From Nanobdellota archaeon (GTDB lineage Archaea; Nanobdellota; Nanobdellia; Woesearchaeales; JAHWHD01), in the NCBI GenBank assembly GCA_034722435.1, contig JAYENX010000015.1, positions 1 to 44,457 on the forward strand: a DNA stretch of 44,457 nt. The letters run 5' to 3'. Made by a program: the position numbers and the translations under genes. Under the pieces are notes generated by a model. That model did not search any database and was not told where the DNA came from. It worked only from the letters and a program-made list of their open reading frames with translations. Below, one piece after another: positions 29,372 to 44,457 of this stretch. The first letter of the stretch is position 1, and each line of letters begins with the position of its first letter.

Positions 29372-29621
29372 TCAATATCCCTAAATAAATTAAATAGGTT
29401 ATAGTATATAAATGTTTATTTTAAAGAATGTGATAAAATAATAATCTTACTTTAGAAATGTGTTTATGCGTAGCAAATTAAATGTATGAGAGACTAAGAA
29501 TCCAATATTTCTAAAAAAAATAACTTAAAGTTTTTTAAATTTAACATACACAATTATACATTTTTTTTACTATAAGAAATCAAGAAATAAAACAAAACAA
29601 TAACATCACTCAAAAAATTAA

Positions 29622-30197
29622 TTAATAATATTCCATAATATCTCTAACTTTCTTTGAAATCTGATTATCCACATCATATAATTTATCTAATAAAGATAAA
29701 CAAGCATCAATTCCTGCCGTAATTCCTGCTGAAGAAATAATTTTTCCGTCTTCAATATATTTAACATTTTCACATACTTGTATTTTTGAATATGCCTTCA
29801 ACAAATCTATTGCCCCTTTGTGAGTTGTAGATTTTCTATTATCAAGTAACCCTGCTTCGGCTAATAAAAGAGATCCGGTACAAACAGATAAAAAATATTG
29901 TGCATTTTGATAATGCTCATGTAAAAATTTAATTGTACTTAAATTGTATCTTTCTCGTCTACTTGAAGGACCACCAGGAATAACTAAAACATCTAATGAA
30001 GGAGAAGTCACATAACTAAAATCAGGTATAACCCTGGTACCATTTCCACAAACAACTTCTTGCAAAGATTCTGAAATTCTAGAAATATCATTAGAACTAT
30101 CAGAATTTAAAAAGAGATTAGCAATAGATAAAACTTCAAGTGGACCTACAAAATCAAGTTCTTCAACACCATTATAAATTAATATTCCAATATTCAT
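29622..30197 (-). CDS. DJ-1/PfpI family protein
   Basis: GVEELDFVGP, LVIPGG, SVCTGS, SSAGITAGID. Confidence 0.9.
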   Translation of the reverse strand: MNIGILIYNGVEELDFVGPLEVLSIANLFLNSDSSNDISRISESLQEVVCGNGTRVIPDFSYVTSPSLDVLVIPGGPSSRRERYNLSTIKFLHEHYQNAQYFLSVCTGSLLLAEAGLLDNRKSTTHKGAIDLLKAYSKIQVCENVKYIEDGKIISSAGITAGIDACLSLLDKLYDVDNQISKKVRDIMEYY

Positions 30198-30352
30198 AAT
30201 CTAAATACGAATATCATCATCTTTAAAAGTTACTTTTACATTATCGTAAATTTTTCGAGTAATATTGCGTATAACATCACGGTTATTTAACGAGGCAGAA
30301 GGAGAAATCAAACCCCACAATATTTAAATACTTAAAATTAATTCTTGATTAT

Positions 30353-30826
30353 ATGCGAGAAATAAAATATGAAGATTTAGATGAAAAACAACGAAGAGTA
30401 TTAGATGAAGCTGAAAAAGTAATGACCACAGCATATAATCCGTATTCTAAGTTTTATGTTGGAGCTGCACTTTTATCCCAAGATGATCGAATAATTACAG
30501 GTTCAAATGTAGAGAATGCAGCGTACGGTTCTACAATATGTGCAGAAAGAGCAGCGATATTGAGAGCAAATGCTATGGGAATAAGAACATTTGATAAAGT
30601 AGGAATTATTGCAAGAGGGGAAAATTTTGACACAACTAAAGTAACTGCCCCATGTGGCAGTTGTAGACAGATGTTATATGAATCTGCTCAAATTTCAGAA
30701 AGAGATTTAGAAATAGTTATGGCGACAACTAAAAAAGATAAAGTTGTTGTGGCAACAATCAATGAACTTTTACCACTAGCATTTGGTCCAAAAGATTTGG
30801 GAATTGATGTTAGAAAATATAAATAA
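30353..30826 (+). CDS. cdd: Cytidine deaminase
   Basis: AYNPYSKFYVGAA, NVENAAYG, CAER, PCGSCRQ. Confidence 0.95.
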   Translation: MREIKYEDLDEKQRRVLDEAEKVMTTAYNPYSKFYVGAALLSQDDRIITGSNVENAAYGSTICAERAAILRANAMGIRTFDKVGIIARGENFDTTKVTAPCGSCRQMLYESAQISERDLEIVMATTKKDKVVVATINELLPLAFGPKDLGIDVRKYK

Positions 30827-30902
30827 TGACTTTAATTTCTAGTTAAAACTAACATCTGGATAAACAACATTTTATATATTAATAATTTCTTAAACTATCA
30901 CA

Positions 30903-31355
30903 ATGATTAAACTCAAACCATTCAAACAATCAAAAGGATATTGTGGACCTGCTTCATTAAAGATGGTTCTATCTGCTTATGGGATAAATAAATCTGAAAA
31001 ATATTTAGCTAAAACAACAAAAAGTAGTAGAACTAGAGGATGTGCTGAAGAAAATATTGTCAAAGCAGCAGAAAAATTAGGATTCAATGGATATGTGAAA
31101 CAAAATTCCTCAGTTAATGAAGTTAAAAAGTTAGTGAAAAAAGGAATTCCTGTAATTGTAGATTGGTTTTCTCCTGAAGAAGCAGGACATTATTCTGTTG
31201 TTATAGGCTTTGACAAAGATAGAATCATTTTAGCAGATCCACATTTTGGCAAATTAAAAAAACATAAAATTGAATGGTTCAAAGAAAGATGGTTTGATTT
31301 ACCTTTTGCAAAAAAAGGTCCACTTCTAAAAGAAATTATTGTAATACATCGATAG
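30903..31355 (+). CDS. C39-like cysteine peptidase
   Basis: QSKGYCGPASL, GHYSVVIG, ILADP. Confidence 0.8.
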   Translation: MIKLKPFKQSKGYCGPASLKMVLSAYGINKSEKYLAKTTKSSRTRGCAEENIVKAAEKLGFNGYVKQNSSVNEVKKLVKKGIPVIVDWFSPEEAGHYSVVIGFDKDRIILADPHFGKLKKHKIEWFKERWFDLPFAKKGPLLKEIIVIHR

Positions 31356-31574
31356 CGCGCCAAGTCCAATTGAAACTAACATCACAATTAAGAGATATGT
31401 GAAGATTAAGGCAACCCACAGAAATTCGATTTGGATGAAATCCCTATATAGAACTGACATCAGAATTACGTCTAACTCCAAAGAAAAGTTTAGGGAAATC
31501 GCTTAACAATTTAGCAAAAGCAACCTAATTTTTCCTTTAATTACCTCCAAATTCTTTGACCCTATAACGAAGGA

Positions 31575-32774
31575 TCAAACTACGTCCGCAGAGGCAAGAG
31601 AATTCTTACTAACCCAAGATAAAATTAAAAAATATACGAAGAAAAGGAATAAACCTACACCCATCATCAAAAACGCAGCAGAAGGAGTATAGATGTCCGT
31701 AAAATACCCTATTAATGGCGCAAAAACTGCATACATTAAATTTCTTGACATACTTTGTATAGAAATTACTGTTGCACGATGATGAGAATCAGTATGTTTA
31801 TTTATTCCTTTATTTACTAAAATATCTCTAACTCCACATACAAATGATATTATACAAATCAATATTAAAACAGATAATTTATTAACAAAAAATATTCCAA
31901 TAAAAGATAAGCTAGCAATTAATAAAATTAAGATTAATAATCTATTTTTTTTTGTTCTTCTTGTGATTTTTCCAGCGGCTAAATTTCCTAATCCTGCTGT
32001 AAAAAAATATAAAGATATTGCAATACCAACTATATATTTTGGAAATGTACTTTGCTCATAGAATGGTTGAATTAGAAACCAAGTTATATGCCCGAGCGCT
32101 GCAAACAACCCAAAGTAAATTATAAGATTTTTAACATATTTATGATTATAAGAAAACTTAATTGCTTCAATAAGATGTTTATAGTAATTCTTCTTATGAA
32201 CCTTTTTATGTATTGGAGGTTCTTTAAACCATAAACCTATAACGAATGCTAGAAAGAAAAGGAAGGCCGAAATAAAGAACAAATTTCTATACCCTAGATA
32301 GATTGCTAAAAACCCGCCCGCAAGCGCTAAAATTGACCAAGTCAATTGAGAATAGAAATTACCTCTACCAAAAATCTTAGCGTATTGATTTTCTTTTTCT
32401 AACTCTTTTAATGAATCATATAATAATGCAGAATCTGCACCTGATCTTAATGCCCAGCAAAAGGCAATAACCACCATTGCGATTAAAAAAGTCCAATAAT
32501 TAGTTCCAAATCCAAAGATTACATAACTTATTGAAGCACAAAGCATGGCTAATGCAACAGATAATTTTCGTCCTACTAAATCTGCAAACACTCCGCTTGG
32601 AACTTCCAGCATTAAAACTACTACAACAAAAATAGTTTGTAGTGACATTACCTGTGTCATCGATAAATAATTTGCTAAAAGAAATAATACAAATGTAGAA
32701 ACAGTAAAATCCAAAGTACTAACTACTCTGAATAAATAGAATTTCCAGATATTAGACTCGTACGCATTAGCCAT
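31575..32774 (-). CDS. MFS transporter
   Basis: About 12 TM segments, LEVPSGVFADLVGRK, SGADSALLYD; start set at MANAYES. Confidence 0.9.
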   Translation of the reverse strand: MANAYESNIWKFYLFRVVSTLDFTVSTFVLFLLANYLSMTQVMSLQTIFVVVVLMLEVPSGVFADLVGRKLSVALAMLCASISYVIFGFGTNYWTFLIAMVVIAFCWALRSGADSALLYDSLKELEKENQYAKIFGRGNFYSQLTWSILALAGGFLAIYLGYRNLFFISAFLFFLAFVIGLWFKEPPIHKKVHKKNYYKHLIEAIKFSYNHKYVKNLIIYFGLFAALGHITWFLIQPFYEQSTFPKYIVGIAISLYFFTAGLGNLAAGKITRRTKKNRLLILILLIASLSFIGIFFVNKLSVLILICIISFVCGVRDILVNKGINKHTDSHHRATVISIQSMSRNLMYAVFAPLIGYFTDIYTPSAAFLMMGVGLFLFFVYFLILSWVSKNSLASADVV

Positions 32775-32916
32775 TTCTCGTCGAGAAAAACAGCACAATT
32801 TATAAATATTACCCATTCGTCGTCGGCAATCACCAACTTACCGTCGAGAAAATCAGCAATCTTTATAAAGTTTTCCCGGCTTCTCGTCGATAATAAACAT
32901 TTTGGAGGAATAAAAA

Positions 32917-33300
32917 ATGAAAGAAGAATTAATGAACGCAGATTTAAGGACTAGAATTGAAACGGAATTACAAAATAAAGATATTTTAAAAAAAATCAAG
33001 ACTGTTGCAAGAAATCTTGGAAAGGAGAATAAGGATAACGAACAAACCATCCATATATTCCAAGAAGGAGACATTAGTATAAATTATTGTTTTTGGTGGA
33101 GAGGGCCTTATGTTCGGATTAATGGCGGAACTGTTTTTGAGGACCATGCCTGTCTTACATATCACGGAATTCCAGTGTATCAATTTGACGAAAACTTAAG
33201 AACACCAAATATCAGTAGATTCAGTCCTGGAGAATGGGAGAAAGAGCTACAAACATTATATGAGAGAGGATTACAGGTTGAAAATAGCCGTAATAATTGA
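32917..33300 (+). CDS. Hypothetical protein
   Basis: ORF track; SD GGAGG. Confidence 0.55.
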   Translation: MKEELMNADLRTRIETELQNKDILKKIKTVARNLGKENKDNEQTIHIFQEGDISINYCFWWRGPYVRINGGTVFEDHACLTYHGIPVYQFDENLRTPNISRFSPGEWEKELQTLYERGLQVENSRNN

Positions 33301-33456
33301 TTAGTCTCAAGCATTCGAAGTTTTCGACTTAAACAATCAGTAGTTTATTTAGTAACTTCCCCCTTTAATTTGAATGCTAGTTAATCTCAATCTGATAAGA
33401 CATTGTGTTGGCAAGATAGACTCTCCGTTACAATTTTCGTTAACAACGAAAATCCT

Positions 33457-33465
33457 GTTAATTGC
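33457..33465. repeat. Right core of a decayed cassette-boundary hairpin (GTTAATTGC)
   Basis: Exact reverse complement of GCAATTAAC at 33901-33909. Confidence 0.7.
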
Positions 33466-33532
33466 CCCGAGCCGTTAGGCGAGAACGCAGCGTGGTCGAG
33501 GAGCGAAGCGACGAAGAAGTCACAATTTCTCG

Positions 33533-33850
33533 CTACTTATCAAATTTGAAATTCTTATGAATCTCCTTATCATATCTTTCCCAATTAAGTGTCTTTCTAA
33601 GAATTACATGAACAGTATTTTTTGTAAAGATAAAGTATACAATAAAATTCTCGGTTTCTTTATGGAAATACATTTCTCCAGATTCTATATAAAACGCATA
33701 TGAATGAATATTTTTGGCATCATCTTCATAAAGATTATCATAAATATCAAAAATTAAATCAATTTGTTTTAGCGTTTCATCTCCAGGAGAAATTTTATAC
33801 CACATGACATCATCAGTGTTACTTAAACCGAGGATTTTTTCTTTGCTCAT
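33533..33850 (-). CDS. Hypothetical protein
   Basis: Start set at MSKEK; TTTATAAA about 25 nt upstream. Confidence 0.6.
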   Translation of the reverse strand: MSKEKILGLSNTDDVMWYKISPGDETLKQIDLIFDIYDNLYEDDAKNIHSYAFYIESGEMYFHKETENFIVYFIFTKNTVHVILRKTLNWERYDKEIHKNFKFDK

Positions 33851-33902
33851 GTAATTAGTTAATAATTGGGGATTTATAAATCTTGCGAGAAATTGTAATT
33901 GC

Positions 33903-33922
33903 AATTAACATCGCTGTTATAT
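33903..33922. repeat. Minimal cassette-boundary site AATTAAC-ATCGCT-GTTATAT
   Basis: Left core, ATC and right core with only 6 nt between cores. Confidence 0.6.
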
Positions 33923-33990
33923 TTCCCGAAGGGCTGAAATTTAGTGCAACGTTCCGCAGGAAAATTTCAGAGTCGTCGTGTCTATATTTT

Positions 33991-34734
33991 TTATTGAGGG
34001 TTTCCGCCGTCTCTAGAAAGAACATATATAGAAACATCTCCTAGATGAAGTCCTTGTTTGGATTCAACCTTATGTTCTTGAGAAATTTTCAGTTTATATT
34101 TTTCTACATGGTTTGCAGGGTCATTTTCCTTTCCAGCAAAATGAAAATAAGGCATGATTATGACTCCGTCTTCTTTTAGACATTGAGGAATTTCTTTGAA
34201 AAATCTTTGTAGAAGTTCAGTACCTCCAAGCATACTTCTTCTCAACATTTCATCTTGATTTGGGTCACCTTCAAATTTTTCAGGTTCTTCAGAAAAAAAT
34301 GGATGATTGAATAAAACAACATCATAGATTCTGTTTTTGGGAAGACCATTAAATAAATCGCTTTGATAAACTTCAGCATTTGCAAGTTTATGTTGTATGA
34401 TATTTTTTTGGGTGTTGGCAACTGCTTTAGGATTAATATCTGCAAACGCAATAAATTTCGCTCCATATTTGGACATTACTATTCCTTGTGTTCCGGGTCC
34501 ACACCCAATATCAGCAACATCTTTTCCAGAATATAATTCTTGATGTTCATATAAAAATCTTGCAAGATGACTTGCAGTAGTAATAATGTCTGACCCAAAA
34601 ACGCCTCTTTCAATCAACAAATCAAGAGAAATATCTGTATTTTCATCTAATATTATATTCCTTATTCCTGATTCGCGTTGATGAGCATGTAATTGTTTTT
34701 TTACAAGATCATATTGTTCTTTAGTGAATGTCAT
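33991..34734 (-). CDS. N-type SAM methyltransferase (PrmC/HemK-like)
   Basis: VADIGCGPG, ADINPKA, SDLF, NHPF (NPPF-like); start set at MTFTK. Confidence 0.8.
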   Translation of the reverse strand: MTFTKEQYDLVKKQLHAHQRESGIRNIILDENTDISLDLLIERGVFGSDIITTASHLARFLYEHQELYSGKDVADIGCGPGTQGIVMSKYGAKFIAFADINPKAVANTQKNIIQHKLANAEVYQSDLFNGLPKNRIYDVVLFNHPFFSEEPEKFEGDPNQDEMLRRSMLGGTELLQRFFKEIPQCLKEDGVIIMPYFHFAGKENDPANHVEKYKLKISQEHKVESKQGLHLGDVSIYVLSRDGGNPQ

Positions 34735-34784
34735 AATGAAAGGAAGTATAAACTGATTTATAAATGTTAGGCGGAAAGAAAACA

Positions 34785-35117
34785 CTATTTTGTAAATATT
34801 TTAACTAATTTTTGCTCAACTTCTTTTACTTTTGAATTAGCTAGTGCTCCTGTTTTGTATAAGATTATGGCTTTGTCAGCTGTAAACAATCTATTAGGTC
34901 TGATCATACTTGTTAATTTCAAGTTTCCTTGCTTGAAATCATCATTCATAAGATTAATGGAATAATCATCAAATCTAGCTTCGCTTGTTATCTGAGCAAG
35001 AATTAAATCATCTCCTTGCAAATTAGCAACAACCAAAGCAGGTCTCTTCTTAGACCTACTCAAATCTGAAAAAGGAAATGGCAGAATAACAACGTCTCCC
35101 TTTACAAATTCTTCCAT
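34785..35117 (-). CDS. PemK/MazF family toxin
   Basis: KGDVVILPFPFSDLSRSKKRPALVV, QITS. Confidence 0.92.
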   Translation of the reverse strand: MEEFVKGDVVILPFPFSDLSRSKKRPALVVANLQGDDLILAQITSEARFDDYSINLMNDDFKQGNLKLTSMIRPNRLFTADKAIILYKTGALANSKVKEVEQKLVKIFTK

Positions 35118-35350
35118 GCTTCATCATCCTCTTTGCTATTCCAATCTTTAGCTAAAACCTTTTCACTAGCTATAGCAGTAGCCATTCTCTCATTTATTTG
35201 TTTCATTGTCCTTAATTCAATATGATCTTCAAAGGCCAAAATAGCTACTTTAGTTCCAGTTTTGAAGCCTTCAGCTTCCCTAATATCCTTGGGAATAGCA
35301 ATTTGTCCTTTTTCAGTTATTGTAGCAGTTTTCATTTCAACTATTGGCAT
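35102..35350 (-). CDS. AbrB/MazE family antitoxin
   Basis: ITEKGQIAIPKDIRE; C-terminal EDDEAWKNL; overlaps the toxin gene. Confidence 0.9.
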   Translation of the reverse strand: MPIVEMKTATITEKGQIAIPKDIREAEGFKTGTKVAILAFEDHIELRTMKQINERMATAIASEKVLAKDWNSKEDDEAWKNL

Positions 35351-35446
35351 AATATCACCTTTCTTACAAGTAAGAAGTGTAAGAAATATATAAATGTTTC
35401 GTTTTCTTTCCGCCTATTTTCCTTTTTCGGATAAATCCTGAATTAC

Positions 35447-35525
35447 GTATAACATCGGAATTTAACGAAGGCGATTTGGGTGGAGAAACCTGTAAGGTTT
35501 CGGAACCGTTAAATTCCTGTAAAAC
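35447..35525. repeat. attC-like hairpin site (79 bp)
   Basis: GTATAACA-TC-GGAATTTAACG ... CGTTAAATTCC-TGTAAAAC. Confidence 0.7.
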
Positions 35526-35745
35526 GACCCTACGCGCCCACTCTCAGCGTCTGTACATATCAAATTCTGTTTTAACTGTAGGCAAATTGGGCGAGTAAAC
35601 TCTTTGACGTGCCATACGCGCCCATATTGTATAAAATGGCTAAACTTCTATTTAAGCTCTTCCCCCGTTTGACGAATTTAACTCGCTTTTGAAGTTTTTA
35701 GAAGTCGTAGTGGTTACGGGGTTTAATAGAAATAAAAAATGAAAA

Positions 35746-36210
35746 TTATTCAATAACAATTTTAGGACTATCTTTGAAACATTTCGGTGCAATAATTCCT
35801 TTACCGCGAACATCAAAACATTGTGCAACCTTTTGAATTACTTTAAAGTATTCTTCTTTATCTTTAACCCTTAATTTGACAAGATAATCATAATCTCCAG
35901 TTGTATAAAATACTTCTTGTACTTGAGGGATTTTAGATAATTGTTTTGCGGGTTTTTCTAAATCAACTTCCTTTCCAAGCTTTGCTTGACCAAAAACAAA
36001 TGCTACATAACTTTTATCTAATTTTTCAGGTTCAACGATAACTGTAAAACCTTTAATTACGCCCCATTCTTGTAATTTATTTATTCTTGCCTGTACTGTA
36101 GAAGTTGGAATTTTTAATTGGTGTGCAATTTTTGTAATTCTTGGAACACACAAATCCTTATCTTGGATTAATTTCAATATTTTCTTGTCTATAGGTTTTA
36201 TTTTATCCAT
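35746..36210 (-). CDS. Lrp/AsnC family regulator
   Basis: IDKKILKLIQ..IAHQL..STVQARINKLQEWGVIKGF; V.EVFYTTGDYDYLVKL. Confidence 0.9.
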   Translation of the reverse strand: MDKIKPIDKKILKLIQDKDLCVPRITKIAHQLKIPTSTVQARINKLQEWGVIKGFTVIVEPEKLDKSYVAFVFGQAKLGKEVDLEKPAKQLSKIPQVQEVFYTTGDYDYLVKLRVKDKEEYFKVIQKVAQCFDVRGKGIIAPKCFKDSPKIVIE

Positions 36211-36338
36211 TTTTTTATTATATTAATGTATATTATATGTAAATATAAGTATTATTTATATACTTTACGTAAAAATTAGCATAAAATTAATATTAATTGT
36301 ATAGTATCCTAATTTATAATACTTTGGAGGATGAAATC

Positions 36339-36650
36339 ATGAAAAAAATAACCCGATTTGTAGGAAAAAGAATCACAATTGATGGAGTTATAGGTACTAT
36401 TTATCAAGAACAAGAAAGGGGGTTTTGTGAATTTGTAAATAGAGACCAGATCGCAATCAAAACCATAAAAATAGCAAGTAGATATCTTAAAAATAATGGT
36501 GAAAGAAATTACAAAATTAAAGATAAATTTTTAGATTCAGTAATTGCATCTAAAGAAACGTATGGCTCATTAATTGCACACTGGAGTGGATATTATCCTT
36601 GCGGCAATTATCTTAGACGTGATCAAGAATTAAAAAACGCAGGAATTTAA
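36339..36650 (+). CDS. Hypothetical protein
   Basis: Start set at MKKIT with SD GGAGG. Confidence 0.5.
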   Translation: MKKITRFVGKRITIDGVIGTIYQEQERGFCEFVNRDQIAIKTIKIASRYLKNNGERNYKIKDKFLDSVIASKETYGSLIAHWSGYYPCGNYLRRDQELKNAGI

Positions 36651-36690
36651 TATTTATTTTTTTCTTTCCCGTACCCAACCCATAATTCTT

Positions 36691-36697
36691 GTTAAAC
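36691..36697. repeat. Orphan right core GTTAAAC
   Basis: CTTGTTAAAC context as at 43283-43292; complementary to 37689-37695. Confidence 0.55.
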
Positions 36698-36756
36698 CGC
36701 TTAAAGGTGTCTACAAAAACGCAATATTTAAATATGTAGACACCTTATAATTATAT

Positions 36757-37650
36757 ATGTTCTTAGAAATACGAAAGATTGGAGAAAGTAAAAAATACTA
36801 TCTTGTGCATACATATAGAATAAAAAGTAAAGTAAAAAGGATTTCTAGGTATTTAGGGTCTAATTTAACTAAGAAGGAATTGAGTCAATTACAAAAACAG
36901 GCAGAGCAGGAAATTCTGGAGGAGATTAAGGAAAAGAATATTCTTGAATTTGAGCTTACAAAAGAAGAAATAGAAGAGTATAAGAAATATGAAAAAGATA
37001 TTAAAATCCAACATTTGCAAAAGTTAAACTGGAAAAGATTTACTGCTAATTTTACATATAATACTAATGCTATAGAAGGCTCAACTGTTCTTCTGTCAGA
37101 AGTTAAAGAGTTACTAAGTGGAGAGGAAAAACCTCATGATAATGAGGAAATTGAAACCTTGAATGTAGCAGAAGCAATTGATTTTATTAAAACTTCTAAA
37201 CAAAAAATTACTGTTGCATTTATCAAAAAATTGCATAAGATTTGTTTTAATGGCACTAAAGGATTTGCAGGCAAATTAAGAGATGTTAATGTAATTATAA
37301 GAAATGCTCAAGGAGATATAATTCACGAAGGTGCTCCGATTAAACAACTTCAACCATTGCTTAAAGAGCTTTGTAAATGGTATTTCAGTCATAAAAACAA
37401 ATACCCTCCGCTGTTACTTGCAGCTGTCATGCATAACCAATTTGAAAAAATACACCCATTTCAAGATGGTAATGGGAGAGTTGGCCGGTTATTGCTAAAT
37501 TATGTTCTTTTAAAGCATAATTATCCACCTATAAATATAAGACTCAGAGATAGAGTAAAATACTACCATTGTTTACATGAATATGACCATAAGAATGATA
37601 TTAAGACAACTTTAAAGTTTTTAATTTCTCAATATAAGAAACAGTTCTAG
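36757..37650 (+). CDS. Fic domain protein (class II, internal inhibitory motif)
   Basis: HPFQDGNGRVGR active motif; TNAIEG inhibitory motif. Confidence 0.93.
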   Translation: MFLEIRKIGESKKYYLVHTYRIKSKVKRISRYLGSNLTKKELSQLQKQAEQEILEEIKEKNILEFELTKEEIEEYKKYEKDIKIQHLQKLNWKRFTANFTYNTNAIEGSTVLLSEVKELLSGEEKPHDNEEIETLNVAEAIDFIKTSKQKITVAFIKKLHKICFNGTKGFAGKLRDVNVIIRNAQGDIIHEGAPIKQLQPLLKELCKWYFSHKNKYPPLLLAAVMHNQFEKIHPFQDGNGRVGRLLLNYVLLKHNYPPINIRLRDRVKYYHCLHEYDHKNDIKTTLKFLISQYKKQF

Positions 37651-37688
37651 GTGTCTACAAAGTAGAGTGTAGACACCCTTCTAATTGC

Positions 37689-37845
37689 GTTTAACATTAG
37701 GTTGAATAGACGTTTTACGTAAGTGTTACGTAATTATTGTTAAAGAGATTAAAATATGCACGCTGTTTTCTTGAATGTATGTAAAAAAAATATAACCTTG
37801 GAAAGAGAAAAAATAGAAATGGCGAGGCGAATGGTTGTTAAGTGA
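37689..37845. repeat. Degenerate attC-like site
   Basis: GTTTAACATT ... TTGTTAAGTGA; interior pairing is partial. Confidence 0.5.
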
Positions 37846-37901
37846 CCCGGACGAAGTGAGAGCGCAGCGTGGCAAGGAAAATCTTTGATTTTCCGCAGAG
37901 T

Positions 37902-38642
37902 TTATTTGCCCCCACATACAAAAGTGTATTTTAAGGATTTGCCAACCCAATCTTTTTCTTCAAAATCTGTGCTTTTTACAACTTCAATAAGATTCAACCC
38001 TGCTGATTTTATTTCAGAAAGAGCTTCTTTTTTAGTATAAAAATGTAAAAACATTTTTTCTTGCATTTTTGTTTCTGGATTATTAGCTTCAATCCAAGTA
38101 TCACCTAATTCTTCATCAGGTTTCTTGAATATTGCTCCAATTTCTTTTTTCGTCCAAAACCACCAAAACTTAAATCCACTTTTCCGTTCGTGTGTAGTAA
38201 AAAACATAACCCCTTTTGGTTTCAGAAAATTCTTGCATTGTTTTAGTAATTTAATCCTATTATTTATTCCTTTAATATGCTCAATCGTTTGAGTTGGAAG
38301 CATAATATAATCAAAAGAATTTTCTGGATAATTTAATTTTGTAATATTTTTAGCAATAAATTTAGTATTAGATATTTTATGTTTTTTAGCATATTCGTTT
38401 GCATACTTAATCATATTTGGAGCAATATCAACGCCAATAATTTCAAATCCTCTTTTTGCAAGAACAAATGCTTCTCTTCCCGCACCACAGCCAAGATCTA
38501 AAATCTTTTCTTTGGATTTGAAATATTTATCAATAACATATTTTTCAGTTTCTAATAATCCATGCTTGATTATTTTAGCATAGTGTTCTACTTCCCTTTT
38601 TGAATCAAATGTTTTTTTTACACTTTGGGTTGAATCTGACAT
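37902..38642 (-). CDS. Class I SAM-dependent methyltransferase
   Basis: ILDLGCGAGR, GVDIAP, FDYI. Confidence 0.9.
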   Translation of the reverse strand: MSDSTQSVKKTFDSKREVEHYAKIIKHGLLETEKYVIDKYFKSKEKILDLGCGAGREAFVLAKRGFEIIGVDIAPNMIKYANEYAKKHKISNTKFIAKNITKLNYPENSFDYIMLPTQTIEHIKGINNRIKLLKQCKNFLKPKGVMFFTTHERKSGFKFWWFWTKKEIGAIFKKPDEELGDTWIEANNPETKMQEKMFLHFYTKKEALSEIKSAGLNLIEVVKSTDFEEKDWVGKSLKYTFVCGGK

Positions 38643-38705
38643 ACTATTAAGATTGGGTTGGCATTATATAAATTTTCTTATAATTAGTGGGGGCAAATAA
38701 ATTTC

Positions 38706-38890
38706 ATTTAACATCAGTTTTAAACGACCCGATAGGGCTCGAAGGCGAAGCCATCGAGGGTTCAATTCTGACCTCGAGACTCCTTTAAAGTGAGGCTCGA
38801 GCTGGAAGAATTGAATCTGGGTAAAATTGGGGAAATCGCTTGGCGATTTAGGCTATGCCGACCCAATTTTCCGTTTAAAACTTGTTAAAT
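38706..38890. repeat. attC-like branched hairpin site (185 bp)
   Basis: ATTTAACA-TC-AGTTTTAAACG ... CGTTTAAAACT-TGTTAAAT with several internal stems. Confidence 0.8.
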
Positions 38891-39213
38891 ACCTTTACCC
38901 TACGAAGTGGGGTAAAGTTGCGTCCGCAAAGTAAAATTTCCATTTCTTATCAATTCTGCCGAAGGCAGACTATATGTGCGTAGCACTGGGGAGTTCAGTT
39001 CTTTCTAATAAGCGAAGCATTACATCAAGAACAAGTATCAAGGGGGAGTTCGTTACATCAAAGCCGAAGGCTCTTTTAGTTAGTACATTCAGGGGAGTTC
39101 CGTTCAATTAATGCAAACACAGTGAGCTATCAACAACAAGTATTATGAGGTAAAAAACAGCATATTCATTTAAAAGCAAATATTTATTAATATTTGAGTA
39201 TTTATTATATATA

Positions 39214-40720
39214 CCTGACCTCGCCACTTCTTAAAAAGAAATAAAATCTCCCATAGTGTTTGGTGAAACCCTATGAGAGAAAATGTTAATTTTGCTATAG
39301 GCAATATAGCATTGATGGATAAAGTAGACCACAAATTTAATTTTTTCGGTCAACTCTTTGGTAGTGTAGTAAACAAAGCTAAAAACCTAAAGGAAGATGC
39401 TAAGTTGTTCATGTACAATCGACTTGGAAAATGCGTATCTATAAATCAGATTTTATCTGTTTATCCTCTTGAAACCTTTGAGTATCTTGGCTTCAAAGAT
39501 GCGCCAAAAGAAAGAACATTGTACAGAGACTTGGAACGTATTGGCTTATACCACAAATTCATCATAAGCAAATACCAGCAACTCATAAAGAAAAATGATC
39601 TTGTTTCAAAAGAGCAGTTTCCTGATTTCTCCTCAAGTTATTTCGAAGGTAAGAAGTCTGAACTTAGCAAGTTAGGCTACTCCAGAGATCATATGCCTGG
39701 GAAAGAACAGCTTACATGGGGAATTAGTACAGGTTCCAACAACATCCCTACGGCATTGACAATCCAAAAAGGCAATGTCCAGGACAAAAAGCATTTCAAA
39801 TTTATGCTTAAAACAGTGAGCAAGGTGCTGGATAAAGAAGATGTTCTTGTCTTTGATTGCGGTGGCAACACTAAGAAGAACAAGAAAAAAATTAGAAAGC
39901 TTAAGTTTCATTATCTTACACTCAAAGCAAAGAAAAAGAAAACATACAAGAAATATATACAGCTTTTCAAGATAGGAAAAAAGCAGAAAATCAGCTTAAA
40001 TGGAAATTATTATGAATGCGTTAAAATAAGAGAAGAAGATGAGATAAAATACATCTTCTTCTCTAAAAAACTATACAAAGACCAGATTAAGAAGAGGAAA
40101 AAGAAGTTTAAGAAAGAACTTGAAAAGAATGAAAGCAAGCTTACTAAAGTAAAGAAAGGCAAATCTTTCTCAACCTGTATCTCAAGAGAAGGTTATATCG
40201 TAACCAAAGGCTCTTTGCAGAAAACTCTGGATGGAATAAAAAACCCTTTCATAACTGGATTAGAAGGCTACTTCATCCTTGAATCATCTTTGGATGATGA
40301 GCCAGAGAAGGCTCTTATCTTATACAAAGACAGAGACAAATCTGAAAAGCTTATCAGAGACATGAAAGAAGGAACAGAGCTTAGGCCAATAAGGCATTGG
40401 AGCAAGTGGGCTATTATTGGTTATCTTGTGATAATTTTCCTCACAAACTGCCTGATTAATTTGACACTTTATTTAGCTGAGAACCCCATCGTGAAAAACG
40501 TAAAGTTACTCAAAAAATTCCTTAACAATTTGACACTTACTGTGGTATATCCAAGAAATAGGTTTAGATTCACTATTTTGGCTAACGATTCTGAAGAAAT
40601 GAGGTCTGTTTTAGGGGATTGGCTGGATAAATACAGGGATAAATCATTAGAATTACGCTGGTAAAGCTGAATGGCGAAATGGGTTAGGGCATTTGTTTAG
40701 TTAGAGATGGCGAGGTCAAG
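39214..40720 (+). mobile_element. IS1634-family insertion sequence, 1507 bp
   Basis: TIRs CCTGACCTCGCCA / TGGCGAGGTCAAG; 6-bp duplication TATATA at 39208-39213 and 40721-40726. Confidence 0.9.
39273..40664 (+). CDS. IS1634-family DDE transposase
   Basis: [15 protein letters not shown]...[24 protein letters not shown]. Confidence 0.88.
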
Positions 40721-40728
40721 TATATAAT

Positions 40729-40959
40729 ATGGCAAAAAACCCAAAACTAACTCAAAATGAGATAAAGGTCTTAAAAAAACTTATTGAACAGGCCAGGGTT
40801 TCAGATACTGAAATTGCTAAAAATATGTCCATTTCTCAACAAGCAGTATATCAGATAAGAAACCGCCTCGAGGAATTAGGAGTAATTAAGGGATATATGC
40901 CTATTATTGATTTTAAAAAAATTGGAATAAATTTGCTATTTAAGGTAACATTTAAATAA
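40729..40959 (+). pseudogene. Truncated Lrp/AsnC regulator (HTH only)
   Basis: ARVSDTEIAK..ISQQAVYQIRNRLEELGVIKGY; ends after 76 aa; cut off from its promoter by the IS. Confidence 0.6.
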
Positions 40960-41005
40960 AATTAAAGTTACTTTAAAAGCAGAAAGACAAAGAAAGTTTT
41001 AAGTT

Positions 41006-42694
41006 GTGGTTGCAATGAAAGACATTAAAACTAATGAATCAAAAAGAAAATTTGGAAGAATCAAAGAAATTGCAGGAGTTTTAACTAAATCTGGCTTTGG
41101 ATATATTGTAGAACGAATACAGCTAAAGAGGAAATTGCCATTTCTTAAGAGGCTCTCGCATTATGAATCTTTGGAGGAATTAGACTCAACAGTGCCGGAA
41201 AGAGTTAGATTTGTGTTAGAGGAGCTAGGCACAACTTTTATTAAATTTGGCCAGATATTAAGCACGAGGCAGGATTTGATTGGAGAAGAATTTGCAAAAG
41301 AATTTGCCAAACTGCAGGACAATACGCCACCATTCTCATATGAGCTTGTTAGAACAACAATTAAAGAAGAAGTTGGCCGTTCGATTGATTCTCTATTTGA
41401 AGAATTTAACAATAAACCCCTGGCATCAGCTTCAATTGGGCAGGTACACAAGGCAAAGTTAAAAAACGGCAAAATTGTTGCTGTTAAAATCCAAAGACCA
41501 GGAATTGAAGAACAAATCAAAGAAGATATTAATATAATGCGGAAGCTGGCAAAATTAATTGAGAAGCATATCCCTGATTGGAAATACTTCAATCTTCCAG
41601 TTGTTATTGATGAGTTTGAGCGTTCTATTAAAAAAGAGTTAAACTATATCCAAGAAAAGACAAACATGAATAAATTCCAAAGCATGTTTGAAGATGATGA
41701 AAACATTGTTGTCCCGAAAGTTTATGATGAATATTTAACAAGACGAGTAATCATAACTGAATTTATCGATGGGGTTAAAATAAGCGAGCTATCCAAATCC
41801 AAAAGACATTTTAATAAACAATTGATTGCAAAGAGGGGTGCGGAAGCTTTTTTTAAGCAGGTTTTGGTTCATGGATTTTTTCATGCAGATCCTCATCCTG
41901 GCAACCTATTAGTATTAGAACAGAATCGCATTTGTTTTTTAGATTTTGGAATGGTAGGTCATATTGATAAGGAATTTATGGATAATCTTGCACAGTTATT
42001 TGTATTTCTCATTGATTACAATGTTAACGGCTTAATTAATCAGCTTACTAATATGGGTTTCATTAATGAAACTATTGACATTAAATCATTTAAGTACGAT
42101 ACCATGGATATAATGGATTTATACCACGGTGCTCAGTTGAAAGATATACGGCTTGGAAAAATAATCAGTGAGCTTATGATGCTATTGGTTAAATATAATA
42201 TAACTCAGCCAAAAGAGATAATCTTGCTAAGCAGAGCGTTAATTATCATTGAAGGTATTGGAAAAGACCTTGATCCTGAATTTAATATAGTTGTTGTATG
42301 CAAGCCATATGCAAAGAAAGTAATCAGGCAAAGAATAAGCCCCAGAAGGATTATGGACATAATAAAAGATGACTTTTTTGAGTTTGAACATTTTATAAAA
42401 ATACTTCCAAGAACTATGAAAGAGATATTTAGTAAGATTGCCCTTGGTAAAATCAATATTGAATTTGAACATAAAAACCTCGATAGGTTTTCAAGTAACT
42501 TAGAAAGAATCAGCAATAAAGTTTCTTTTGCATTAATAATATCTGCACTGATTGTTGCTTCATCACTTATAATGCAGACTGACAAAGGGCAACTCCTTTT
42601 TGGGTTTCCTATACTGGGTATAGTCATATTTTTCATAAGTGCTATAATGGGATTAGGATTAGTTATTTCAATAATTAGATTCAAAAAAATGTAA
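41006..42694 (+). CDS. UbiB/AarF/ABC1 family atypical kinase
   Basis: IKFGQILSTRQD, ASASIGQVH, VAVKIQRP, FHADPHPGN, LDFGMVG. Confidence 0.95.
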   Translation: MVAMKDIKTNESKRKFGRIKEIAGVLTKSGFGYIVERIQLKRKLPFLKRLSHYESLEELDSTVPERVRFVLEELGTTFIKFGQILSTRQDLIGEEFAKEFAKLQDNTPPFSYELVRTTIKEEVGRSIDSLFEEFNNKPLASASIGQVHKAKLKNGKIVAVKIQRPGIEEQIKEDINIMRKLAKLIEKHIPDWKYFNLPVVIDEFERSIKKELNYIQEKTNMNKFQSMFEDDENIVVPKVYDEYLTRRVIITEFIDGVKISELSKSKRHFNKQLIAKRGAEAFFKQVLVHGFFHADPHPGNLLVLEQNRICFLDFGMVGHIDKEFMDNLAQLFVFLIDYNVNGLINQLTNMGFINETIDIKSFKYDTMDIMDLYHGAQLKDIRLGKIISELMMLLVKYNITQPKEIILLSRALIIIEGIGKDLDPEFNIVVVCKPYAKKVIRQRISPRRIMDIIKDDFFEFEHFIKILPRTMKEIFSKIALGKINIEFEHKNLDRFSSNLERISNKVSFALIISALIVASSLIMQTDKGQLLFGFPILGIVIFFISAIMGLGLVISIIRFKKM

Positions 42695-42711
42695 AATGGA
42701 GGTAAACAAAA

Positions 42712-43014
42712 ATGGTAGATTTGTTAAAAAAAGGTTTAATGCTTGGTCTTGGTATTACTACCATGACCAAAGAAGCAATAGAGAAGACTGTGAAAGATTT
42801 ACAAGAGAAGGGAGAGATTAATACAAAAGAAGGCAAAAAGATGGTTGAAAACTTGCTGAAAAAGTCTAAAAAACAAAGTGAAGAAATAATGAAGAAAGTT
42901 GATGAGAGAGTGAAAAAAGTTTTGAAAACAATGCCCGTAGCAACTAAAAACGACCTTGAATCGCTTCATAAAAAGATTGACCAGCTAATAAAGAAAGATA
43001 AAAAGAAGAAATAA
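42712..43014 (+). CDS. Phasin-like helical protein
   Basis: KKGLMLGLG..TMTKE..E..V..L..KGEI; ATKNDL. Confidence 0.7.
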   Translation: MVDLLKKGLMLGLGITTMTKEAIEKTVKDLQEKGEINTKEGKKMVENLLKKSKKQSEEIMKKVDERVKKVLKTMPVATKNDLESLHKKIDQLIKKDKKKK

Positions 43015-43209
43015 GTGATTTTTTCTTATTTCTTCTTTTTGTAATACAATTAGTTTGCATCTCGATAAAAAATAGACTAGTAATATGAGAACTCCCCCTT
43101 AAGTTTAAAATTGTCCCGTTCTAATTAAATTTCTTTTTCAAAGAAAAAGACTATATGTCCGCTAGGACGAACTCCCCCTTGTTTTTTAAAAAAATGGAAA
43201 TTTTATTGT

Positions 43210-43292
43210 ATTTAACATCGCGGATTAAAAAAAGTTCGCGTAGCGAATTTGGGAAAAATCAGCAAGATTTTTCTTTTTAATCCTTGTTAAAC
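43210..43292. repeat. attC-like hairpin site (83 bp)
   Basis: ATTTAACA-TCGC-GGATTAAAAA ... TTTTTAATCC-T-TGTTAAAC. Confidence 0.8.
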
Positions 43293-43419
43293 TCCCCCGA
43301 ACGAAAGTGAGAGGTCGCAGACCGTGGGTCGAGCGAAGCGAAGAAGTCGAGAAAGAGTGCGTTCTATCCAAAAGAGCGAATGCGATACATCAAGAACAAC
43401 AATCAAAAGGGAACAAAAT

Positions 43420-44373
43420 TTATTTGAATAACTTCTCATAAAATTTCTTTCTTCCAATTACATCAATTTCATCAAGTGCATTAGATAATATTTTAAACAA
43501 ATCTTTTCCTTTCCATTTGTCATACATTAACCAAGACATTATCATTAATGCTGCAAATTTAAATGCATCAAAAAGATGTTCTTTTTCTGTTTTTGTTAAA
43601 GGACTAATTTCTTCGTATGAATTTACAATTTTTTTAGCAATTGAAAAATCCATTTTATTAGTATAAAATCTTGCCCAGTACAAAATCAGGATTCCTATAT
43701 CGTGAATTCTATATCCATAATGTGAATCATCAAAATCAAGAATTCCTGAAATTTCATTATTATGAAATTTAACATTGGATTTATCAAAATCACCATGTAC
43801 AATGCTTTTAGTTAAGTTTGTTGGAAAATTTATTGTATCTAATTGAGATTTTATAATATTATATCTAAATTTTCCTTTATCTTTATCTTCAAATCTCTTC
43901 TTCTCTTCTTTAGTAGCTTTAATGCAAAAATCTTTACTTCTTGGTTCTTTGTGAATATAATTATTTACATCATAATTTTTAGTTAATTTATGTAGTAAAG
44001 CTAATTTATGAACTAATTCTTTAAATTGAATATTATTAAGATTTTTCAAATGTCTTCCAGATATATATTCAAAAATGATAAATGGTTTCTTATCAAATAT
44101 CCCGATAAATTGATGCTTTTTATTTTCAATTGGTTTTGCAATTGGATATTTTTTCTCTGAAAGAAATTTTAAAAGTTTGGCTTCAAAGTCTACTCTTTTT
44201 TTGGTTCTATTTTCATAGTATCTTAAAACAAATTTACCTTTTGTTGTTTTAATTAAAATATTTGTTTGAACATAGCCCGCCTTGAAAGGTTTTGATTCTT
44301 TAAAATCTCCAATGTCGTAATTGTCTAATATTTCTTGAAAAACTTTTTTGGTAAAATTTGTTTTAACAGCCAT
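43420..44373 (-). CDS. Homoserine kinase type II / aminoglycoside-phosphotransferase-like kinase
   Basis: GYVQTN, FVLRYYE, IVHGDF...NV, ILDFDD. Confidence 0.85.
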   Translation of the reverse strand: MAVKTNFTKKVFQEILDNYDIGDFKESKPFKAGYVQTNILIKTTKGKFVLRYYENRTKKRVDFEAKLLKFLSEKKYPIAKPIENKKHQFIGIFDKKPFIIFEYISGRHLKNLNNIQFKELVHKLALLHKLTKNYDVNNYIHKEPRSKDFCIKATKEEKKRFEDKDKGKFRYNIIKSQLDTINFPTNLTKSIVHGDFDKSNVKFHNNEISGILDFDDSHYGYRIHDIGILILYWARFYTNKMDFSIAKKIVNSYEEISPLTKTEKEHLFDAFKFAALMIMSWLMYDKWKGKDLFKILSNALDEIDVIGRKKFYEKLFK

Positions 44374-44444
44374 AACTTAATCTGATTCTTAGAAGTATAT
44401 AAATTTTGTTCCCCCTACCATTTTTTTAGCCCTCTTTCTCGATT

Positions 44445-44457
44445 GAGTTTAACATCG
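44445..44457. repeat. Left core of the next cassette-boundary site (cut by window end)
   Basis: GAGTTTAACATCG; reverse complement of GTTAAACTC at 43286-43294. Confidence 0.75.

Follow-up and report, generated by a model that had tools for sequence, protein, structure and literature searches.

Why would unrelated genes that follow one another along an archaeal contig each be enclosed by an inverted repeat of their own, with a different sequence each time? The question is raised by contig JAYENX010000015.1 of a Nanobdellota archaeon (assembly GCA_034722435.1; 1.3 Mb, 33% GC, 94.5% complete), whose 44,457 nucleotides, the entire contig C15, are referred to here as the window. Close relatives of its proteins carry the name Candidatus Woesearchaeota. 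Starting at 29.6 kb and continuing to the end of the contig, structured spacers lie between accessory genes that are unrelated to one another, and the region from 29.6 to 44.4 kb is an integron-like array of the CALIN type (a cluster of attC sites lacking an integron integrase). Its genes are DJ-1, a cytidine deaminase (cdd), a C39 peptidase, an MFS transporter, two methyltransferases (MTases), MazEF, Lrp, Fic, an insertion sequence (IS) with UbiB and phasin, and an APH-type kinase. A preliminary description of the sequence had listed ten inverted-repeat pairs, all of which we find in place, and had proposed that each module is clamped by such a pair, linking promoter region and stop codon. 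Our analysis indicates that the possession of an own repeat is general in this lineage and that the repeats are best read, with a little better than an even chance of this being right, as cassette-specific helices that close the folded single-stranded DNA (ssDNA) during recombination.

In the MTase cassette, the left arm of the outer helix (P0; 37901-37915) comprises the last four codons and the stop, and directly follows a GC-rich tail block (here ending in GCAGAG) that comes immediately after a GTTAnnn core and separates this core from the arm. The right arm (38687-38701) lies upstream of the TATA box, 4 nt before the core ATTTAAC, and the two arms match at 15/15 positions in a helix that is present in the predicted minimum free energy (MFE) fold. 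Further in, a nested helix (P1, also 15/15) pairs a native coding arm (37940-37954, codons KDWVG) with the TATA-to-ATG spacer (38649-38663). The hypothetical-gene cassette has a P0 of 12/12 (33522-33533, directly after the tail block, and 33885-33896, 4 nt before GCAATTAAC), and the UbiB/IS module one of 14/14 (38932-38945, after a tail variant ending in CCGCAAAG, and 43192-43205, 4 nt before ATTTAAC), together with a collinear inner inverted block of 15/15 (39039-39053 with 43167-43181). In the APH cassette, P0 is formed by TCGAGAAAGAG (43347-43357, directly after a tail ending in GAAGAAG) and by 44432-44442, which is followed by TTGAGTTTAAC (11/11, in the MFE fold); its nested helix (15/15) pairs an arm over the stop codon (43409-43423) with one over the TATA edge (44399-44413). 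The inner MTase pair, the outer APH pair and the inner UbiB block had been overlooked in the preliminary description. The MazEF helix (16/16) joins 34768-34783, 1 nt after the mazF stop, to 35401-35416, just upstream of the mazE TATA box, and is internal to a fused cassette (the second MTase, MT2, plus MazEF); the 8/8 pair that had been assigned to the second MTase is a portion of the MazEF arm. Finally, DJ-1 has a probable, decayed clamp (29608-29619 with 30249-30260, 11/12).

The joints are alike across cassettes, with a tail end in AG followed by the arm on one side and the arm followed by TT, two variable bases and the core on the other. The left arm begins immediately after the tail block (which ends in GAAGAAG, GCAGAG or GTGAG) and the right arm stops 2-4 nt before the other core, being followed, for example, by TTGCAATTAAC or TTTCATTTAAC. 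In reverse-oriented cargo, the stop codon lies 0-4 nt from the left arm and the ATG 32-47 nt from the right arm, so that the TATA box abuts the latter. The linkage between promoter and stop codon is therefore real as an observation, and it follows from compaction: the arms take up whatever the minimal gene unit of the cargo leaves free, and clamps are also present around cargos of either orientation and cargos without any open reading frame (ORF).

Could such pairs be chance matches in AT-rich DNA? Across the whole genome, 48 of 1189 genes (4%) are flanked by inverted repeats of 11 nt or more, a level equal to that of a permuted control (37 genes), so that a lone pair of 9-12 nt is weak evidence; the array region is enriched (7 of 17 genes at 11 nt or more), and the short pairs of cdd, Lrp and the second MTase (8/8) are at the chance level. 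An own-versus-other test, in which exact collinear matches between the first and last 300 nt of a cassette are chained and scored, gave own-end scores of 35 for the MTase cassette, 22 for the UbiB module, 21 for APH, 18 for the hypothetical gene and 11 for Fic, against 2-12 for non-own ends; the scores of DJ-1 (5), cdd (10) and the outer ends of the MT2 plus MazEF cassette (5) are at background. Under a position-constrained null, a score of at least 12 was reached in 0 of 4000 trials, the DJ-1 pair (11/12) has a P of ~0.005, and the 9/10 pairs of cdd and Lrp have ~0.07 or worse. Together with the cross-genome comparison given next, these tests refute chance for the pairs of 12-16 nt, and as a general explanation we consider it negligible. 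Of the ten pairs, those of APH, the UbiB module, MTase, MazEF, the hypothetical gene and Fic are far beyond chance and that of DJ-1 is probably real, and those of cdd, Lrp and the second MTase are not individually significant.

To establish how far the rule extends, we drew 61 cassettes from some 40 genomes of the order, anchored on the core of the tail block and with at least 900 nt downstream, and determined how long an exact inverted repeat the 175 nt after this core form with the following sequence (up to 3.3 kb). Of the 61, 34 have a perfect own repeat of 14 nt or more, where 1.8 are expected from non-own pairs, and in 38 the gapless score exceeds the 99th percentile of the null. Canonical arms, of which there are 36 distinct ones, measure 12-16 nt, and directly past their inner edge complementarity is at random level. 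In 22 of 40 cassettes the outer helix is accompanied by a nested one of at least 11 nt (null 0.8), the loops between the helices being of unequal size on the two sides. No pairing was found across the module (the recombination site), the neighbour score being equal to the null at 25 sites; the idea of a module inserted into a pre-existing hairpin was discarded, since the arms never pair across a module. The MTase cassette of the window and an unrelated HIT cassette (in genomes G304 and G263) have the same layout of 15 bp, an internal loop of 24/23 nt and 15 bp, with the TATA box within the loop and the inner arm filling the TATA-to-ATG spacer. ORF-less mini-cassettes of 35-80 nt retain own inverted repeats of 8-10 bp; they were seen at locus L060 (G218:C29) near 82 and 1853, on the reverse strand, between the tail block and the next core. 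The arms do not form a conserved terminal repeat of the kind found in transposons or miniature inverted-repeat transposable elements: only the outer ~7 nt are semi-conserved among the 36 (TTSAGAA), and most cargos have no transposase. The left arm of the UbiB module recurs in locus L091 of genome G038. A literature search found no description of such helices.

Since the arms adjoin the TATA box and the stop codon, and many left arms start with a T-run, they might be elements of gene expression, namely insulating terminators, operator half-sites or sequences for mRNA 5'-3' pairing. One of the ten pairs is exactly of this kind. The Fic pair belongs to a palindrome, GGTGTCTACA-N19-TGTAGACACC, around the TATA box (36706-36745), of which a copy lies directly after the stop codon (37649-37677), and the palindrome is conserved at both places in nine homologues without cassette cores; one of these, L016 of genome G183, is not needed for the conclusion. 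Fic genes throughout the order have the palindrome at the two places (L014, L018, L019, L025 and L029-L033). The presence of both arms in non-cassette homologues is what the preliminary description had itself named as speaking against a clamp; judged from this distribution, the Fic motif is gene-linked rather than cassette-specific, merely sits where a clamp would, and probably binds a regulator or acts as a terminator in this Fic family. For the remaining pairs an expression role is highly improbable, as the arm sequence is unique to each cassette and the cargos are unrelated, clamps are present in ORF-less cassettes, and the repeats that probably serve as the MazE operator are found at another place, on the downstream side of the TATA box. 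Moreover, the upstream arm is at or upstream of the TATA box and the transcripts are predicted, from the TATA-to-ATG spacing, to be leaderless, so that the sense mRNA would lack this arm and the two arms would not be part of one transcript.

The comparison with non-cassette homologues, which had been proposed as a way to tell the native arm from the copied one, identifies the native arm in two cassettes. The last 18 residues of the MTase are conserved in homologues that are 66-89% identical, from which it follows that the coding arms are native, and the 66% homologue, which is in a non-cassette setting, does not have the repeat. The coding arm of the HIT cassette (LKKISD) is likewise native, and three non-cassette homologues (L097, L099 and L102) have conserved the TATA loop. 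The repeat is missing from the non-cassette homologues L007-9, L097, L099 and L100. With the coding arm native in both cassettes, the non-coding arm must have been moulded to it. The 13-nt repeat of the HIT gene of L102 shows, against the cassette, two compensatory changes; a synonymous change in an Ile codon is mirrored by one of them. The MazEF helix is kept with a changed sequence, TAGGCGGAAAGAAAAC in the window, AGGGCGGGAAGAAAAC in L015 (16/16) and AAGACAGGAAGAAAAA in L022 (15/16), with an 11/11 helix in L026; similarly, a module-adjacent helix beside MazEF reads TTGAGAAAAAGT in L022 and TTGAGAATTTAGGCTA in L038 and is paired in both. The free arm thus tracks the constrained one, as either selection for pairing or intrastrand conversion would yield. 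The 89% MTase homologue (L005/L006) is the same cassette, its homology stopping at the same cores. As for the HIT loci themselves, the repeat of L102 (GCA_030637545.1, 600-1300) links the TATA-to-ATG spacer with the C-terminal codons, and this gene may be a former cassette; in L100 (600-1200), a promoter segment, ATACTTTTATAACCCACAATTTATT, is directly repeated before the HIT gene and before the next gene.

These comparisons bear on a different explanation, in which the repeat is a functionless by-product of capture or mobilisation: some 15 nt at one end would be copied, inverted, to the other end by fold-back or template-switch synthesis, as an inverted analogue of a target-site duplication. 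Several features would be expected from such a process, including the narrow range of lengths (12-17 nt), the sharp inner edges with random sequence past them and the outer edges fixed at conserved joints; in addition, the native coding arms imply that the other arm was written from them, and regeneration with each move would likewise yield covariation. We nevertheless hold it to be a minority possibility, because the nested helices are split by non-complementary loops (in the HIT cassette a native TATA region, which one copying event would overwrite), the loop sizes are unequal on the two sides, the tail block is on one side only, and we could derive an inverted duplication across a cargo from no known enzyme chemistry. 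A single fold-back copy as the sole origin was rejected on account of the native HIT loop. The earlier suggestion that the clamp is a scar of cassette creation therefore fits in its lengths and edges, and fits poorly with covarying arms and with a native TATA region between two moulded ones.

The same description had also proposed that each gene, as ssDNA, would fold into a loop closed by the clamp, with the two cores brought together. This agrees with our predicted ssDNA MFE folds, which contain each clamp complete, both in the array and in the circularised-cassette context. In integrons, excision requires that both flanking sites are folded on one stretch of ssDNA, and it falls as the cassette lengthens (PMC5371416). 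The predicted folds, taken with this published folding requirement, favour a folding role. The cargo is bracketed by its own perfect 12-17 bp repeat (P0) at both joints, often with the nested P1 further in; in the ssDNA of the array, the arms would pair, the cargo would loop out and the two flanking recombination sites would be juxtaposed, and in the excised circle the same helix would shut the recombination module (hairpin plus tail) into a discrete multi-helix junction. Pairing is retained over evolution, the free arm changing to match whatever changes in the constrained arm, whether coding or promoter. We infer that the helices form in vivo on ssDNA, with moderate confidence, that they may promote excision or integration, and that selection, perhaps helped by intrastrand conversion, probably maintains them. 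The bias between G.T and A.C pairs at the helix edges, which was aimed at the folding strand, gave no signal. The clamp was also considered as a plain outward extension of the R-box stem, a candidate that was dropped given that a tail block (40-120 nt) intervenes on one side only.

Several observations weigh against the clamps being closing helices for recombination. About 30-40% of the cassettes have no significant clamp, and the narrow lengths and sharp edges would fit a mechanical, ruler-like origin too. In L005, the helices have decayed to 12/15 and 11/15 (P1), and a paired change there is off by one and hence not compensatory. A repeat of the P1 type is found in L102 with no recognisable module nearby. 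No recombinase linked to the array was found on the contig, which stops inside the array. Lastly, loci L058 and L067 have cargo and clamps in common and differ in tail and hairpin, which makes it ambiguous whether the attC interior or the tail is the segment that travels with the cargo.

This last case leads to an explanation in which the mobile unit is the cargo with its clamp, and not the cargo with an attC: the helix would offer the joints AG↓T and A↓TT (the arrow marking the joint) to an ssDNA recombinase docked on resident modules, and these would remain as a scaffold, somewhat like the peel-and-paste of IS200/IS605. Besides L058 and L067, which share cargo, both clamps and core and differ in tail blocks and hairpin interiors, the MazEF homologues point the same way, having homologous clamp arms next to unrelated tails, and at the joints AG↓T and A↓TT are conserved. 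Against this, one tail block seems to be common to the MTase cassette and L005, a hairpin change between them being compensatory; cassette starts match their own core at 8/8, as expected for a crossover inside the core; no empty module-to-module joint was seen among the loci examined; and no HUH enzyme was found, no search aimed at one having been made. Folding into closing helices therefore stands first in our ranking, the mechanistic by-product follows at a distinctly lower probability, and the cargo-plus-clamp unit, which we think rather unlikely, comes after it. A more far-reaching proposal, which we put forward only tentatively, is that the clamp is a working part of an undescribed archaeal ssDNA recombination system, in which a cargo-specific helix would join the cleavage points AG↓T and A↓TT and cargo and clamp would move between resident scaffold modules. 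If this were true, a new cassette would arise when the free arm is written to fit the constrained one, and cassette genesis, which is still open for integrons and is described as unknown (PMC5371416), would thereby gain a concrete route that can be tested.

How do these helices relate to known systems? The clamp had been said not to be a recognised feature of integron cassettes, and it is indeed absent from the published anatomy of attC, which consists of R box, L box, extrahelical bases, spacer and terminal structure (PMC5027507). The array resembles integron cassettes in its tandem accessory genes, in its RYYYAAC / GTTRRRY cores with a hairpin and in a cassette start complementary to its own core; it differs from them in the extra cassette-specific helices outside the R box, the GC-rich tail block beside one core, the many sites collapsed to two cores with a spacer of 4-6 nt, the cargos with their own TATA promoters and in both orientations, and the lack of a detected integron integrase (IntI). 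Integrase-less CALIN arrays have been reported for Nanoarchaeota (Ghaly et al. 2022, PMC9668308). Integrons also offer a precedent for cassette-specific complementarity. Hall, Brookes and Stokes reportedly noted in 1991 that a cassette starts with 6-7 bases complementary to the inverse core of the 59-base element that is its own, which is said to be evidence for a crossover at G↓TT. As in that case, the repeat described here is a cassette-specific inverted repeat split between the integrated ends, with the circle opened inside a stem; unlike it, where only the R box is involved, there are one or two further perfect helices of 12-17 bp, with the tail block on one side and 2-4 nt on the other side separating them from the R box. 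The complementarity of the cassette start with its own core is thus already known. IS200/IS605 elements (IS608) and the attP of ssDNA phages integrated by Xer share with the array the intrastrand folding of ssDNA and the joining of ends on one strand; their hairpins are conserved, subterminal and internal to the element, and their enzyme is known, whereas here element-specific arms span the cargo and the hairpins are outside it. The processing stems of archaeal 16S/23S rRNA (with bulge-helix-bulge) similarly enclose a gene-sized segment in a long-range helix, acting in RNA and with bulges, in contrast to the perfect helices of the array, of which one arm is outside the predicted transcript.

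The significance of the helices lies in two open integron questions on which they bear, namely how cassettes are created and how flanking sites meet on ssDNA. The rule is simple and measurable (perfect own-end helices whose joints are fixed, nested helices that are frequent, and arms that covary between genomes), and it may be used to delimit DPANN cassettes missed by standard attC models, to design mutants with disrupted and restored helices for recombination assays, and as a marker of former cassettes that have no sites left.

With respect to the recombination sites, the plus strand of the window has ten co-oriented cores ending in TAAC and followed by ATC, with partner cores GTTAnnn, and the RYYYAAC and GTTRRRY cores are inverted with a paired stem between them, as in attC. 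Three attC-like sites fold as hairpins with inner stems of 10-11 bp, the first, on the plus strand, running from ATTTAAC to GTTAAAT (38706-38890) and the others lying at 43210-43292 and 35447-35520. At the collapsed two-core sites (33903-33922 and 30269-30288) the hairpin interior is absent; collapsed joints, with a core spacing of only 4-12 nt, were also seen at both flanks of L005 and at L052, L057 and L058, and from their sequence they look like a core site of the double-stranded type or the scar of a hairpin deletion. The bases after G↓TT (TTRRRYnn) match the cassette's own distal core at 8/8 positions in the hypothetical-gene, UbiB and APH cassettes and at 7/7 in Fic, and cassette starts fit their own core better than the adjacent one; this is the geometry of a classical integron. 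The spacers at the sites are asymmetric by eye (ATCRC versus CTT). Two ways of finding such sites were abandoned: a regular expression with a stem finder for attC, which was symmetric and noisy, and counts of the TAACATC motif for arrays in relatives, which were unspecific (~3 chance matches per 15 kb).

A profile search found no IntI in the 94.5% complete genome: the top match to TIGR02249 has 126 bits against a cut-off of 265, with profile positions 182-236 missing. The genome has four tyrosine recombinases, all on contigs other than that of the array; a Xer-like gene lies on C2, with no array beside it. The contig terminates within a core, GTTTAACATCG (44447-44457), so the array extends past the assembly and a linked recombinase may lie beyond. 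Each cargo has its own TATA box 25-30 nt upstream of the ATG, and is thus not promoterless, and cargo orientation is mixed (20 versus 11 among 31). A cargo comprises a minimal promoter and an ORF; some hold several genes, and others have no ORF. At the gathering threshold, Rfam gave nothing in the window; with an E-value threshold, only a weak CRISPR-DR58-like match at 38600-39300 (E 0.24) appeared, which was judged insignificant.

The tail block of the MTase cassette (37844-37900, plus strand) lies between the core GTTAAGT and the clamp and has its own core, GAGAGCGCAGCGTGG, at 37858-37872. Other copies are at 33464-33521 and 43293-43346, and variants at 38891-38931, 33923-34000 and 31538-31574. 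The tail-block core was found in 109 of 401 genomes of the order, compared with 7 matches for a reversed control pattern. The block consists of two small hairpins around this core, and between the window and L005 the tail hairpin shows a compensatory change (GGAAAATC/GATTTTCC against GTAAAATC/GATTTTAC). A MAFFT alignment of the post-core segments was uninformative.

The UbiB module has additional structure at its ends, which are inverted copies (38946-39140 and 43089-43190) of a non-coding element made up of several blocks. This element, containing CTGCCGAAGGCAGACTATAT and repeats of ATCAAGGGGGAGTTC, is widespread and multi-copy in the order, is also found at G000 C14:4098-4259, and often sits between clamp and cargo. 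Within the same cassette, the segment 39208-40726 contains a 463-aa ORF without a Pfam match, flanked by 24-nt inverted repeats of 88% identity (39208-39231 and 40703-40726), and is probably an insertion sequence; its ends also match other genomes.

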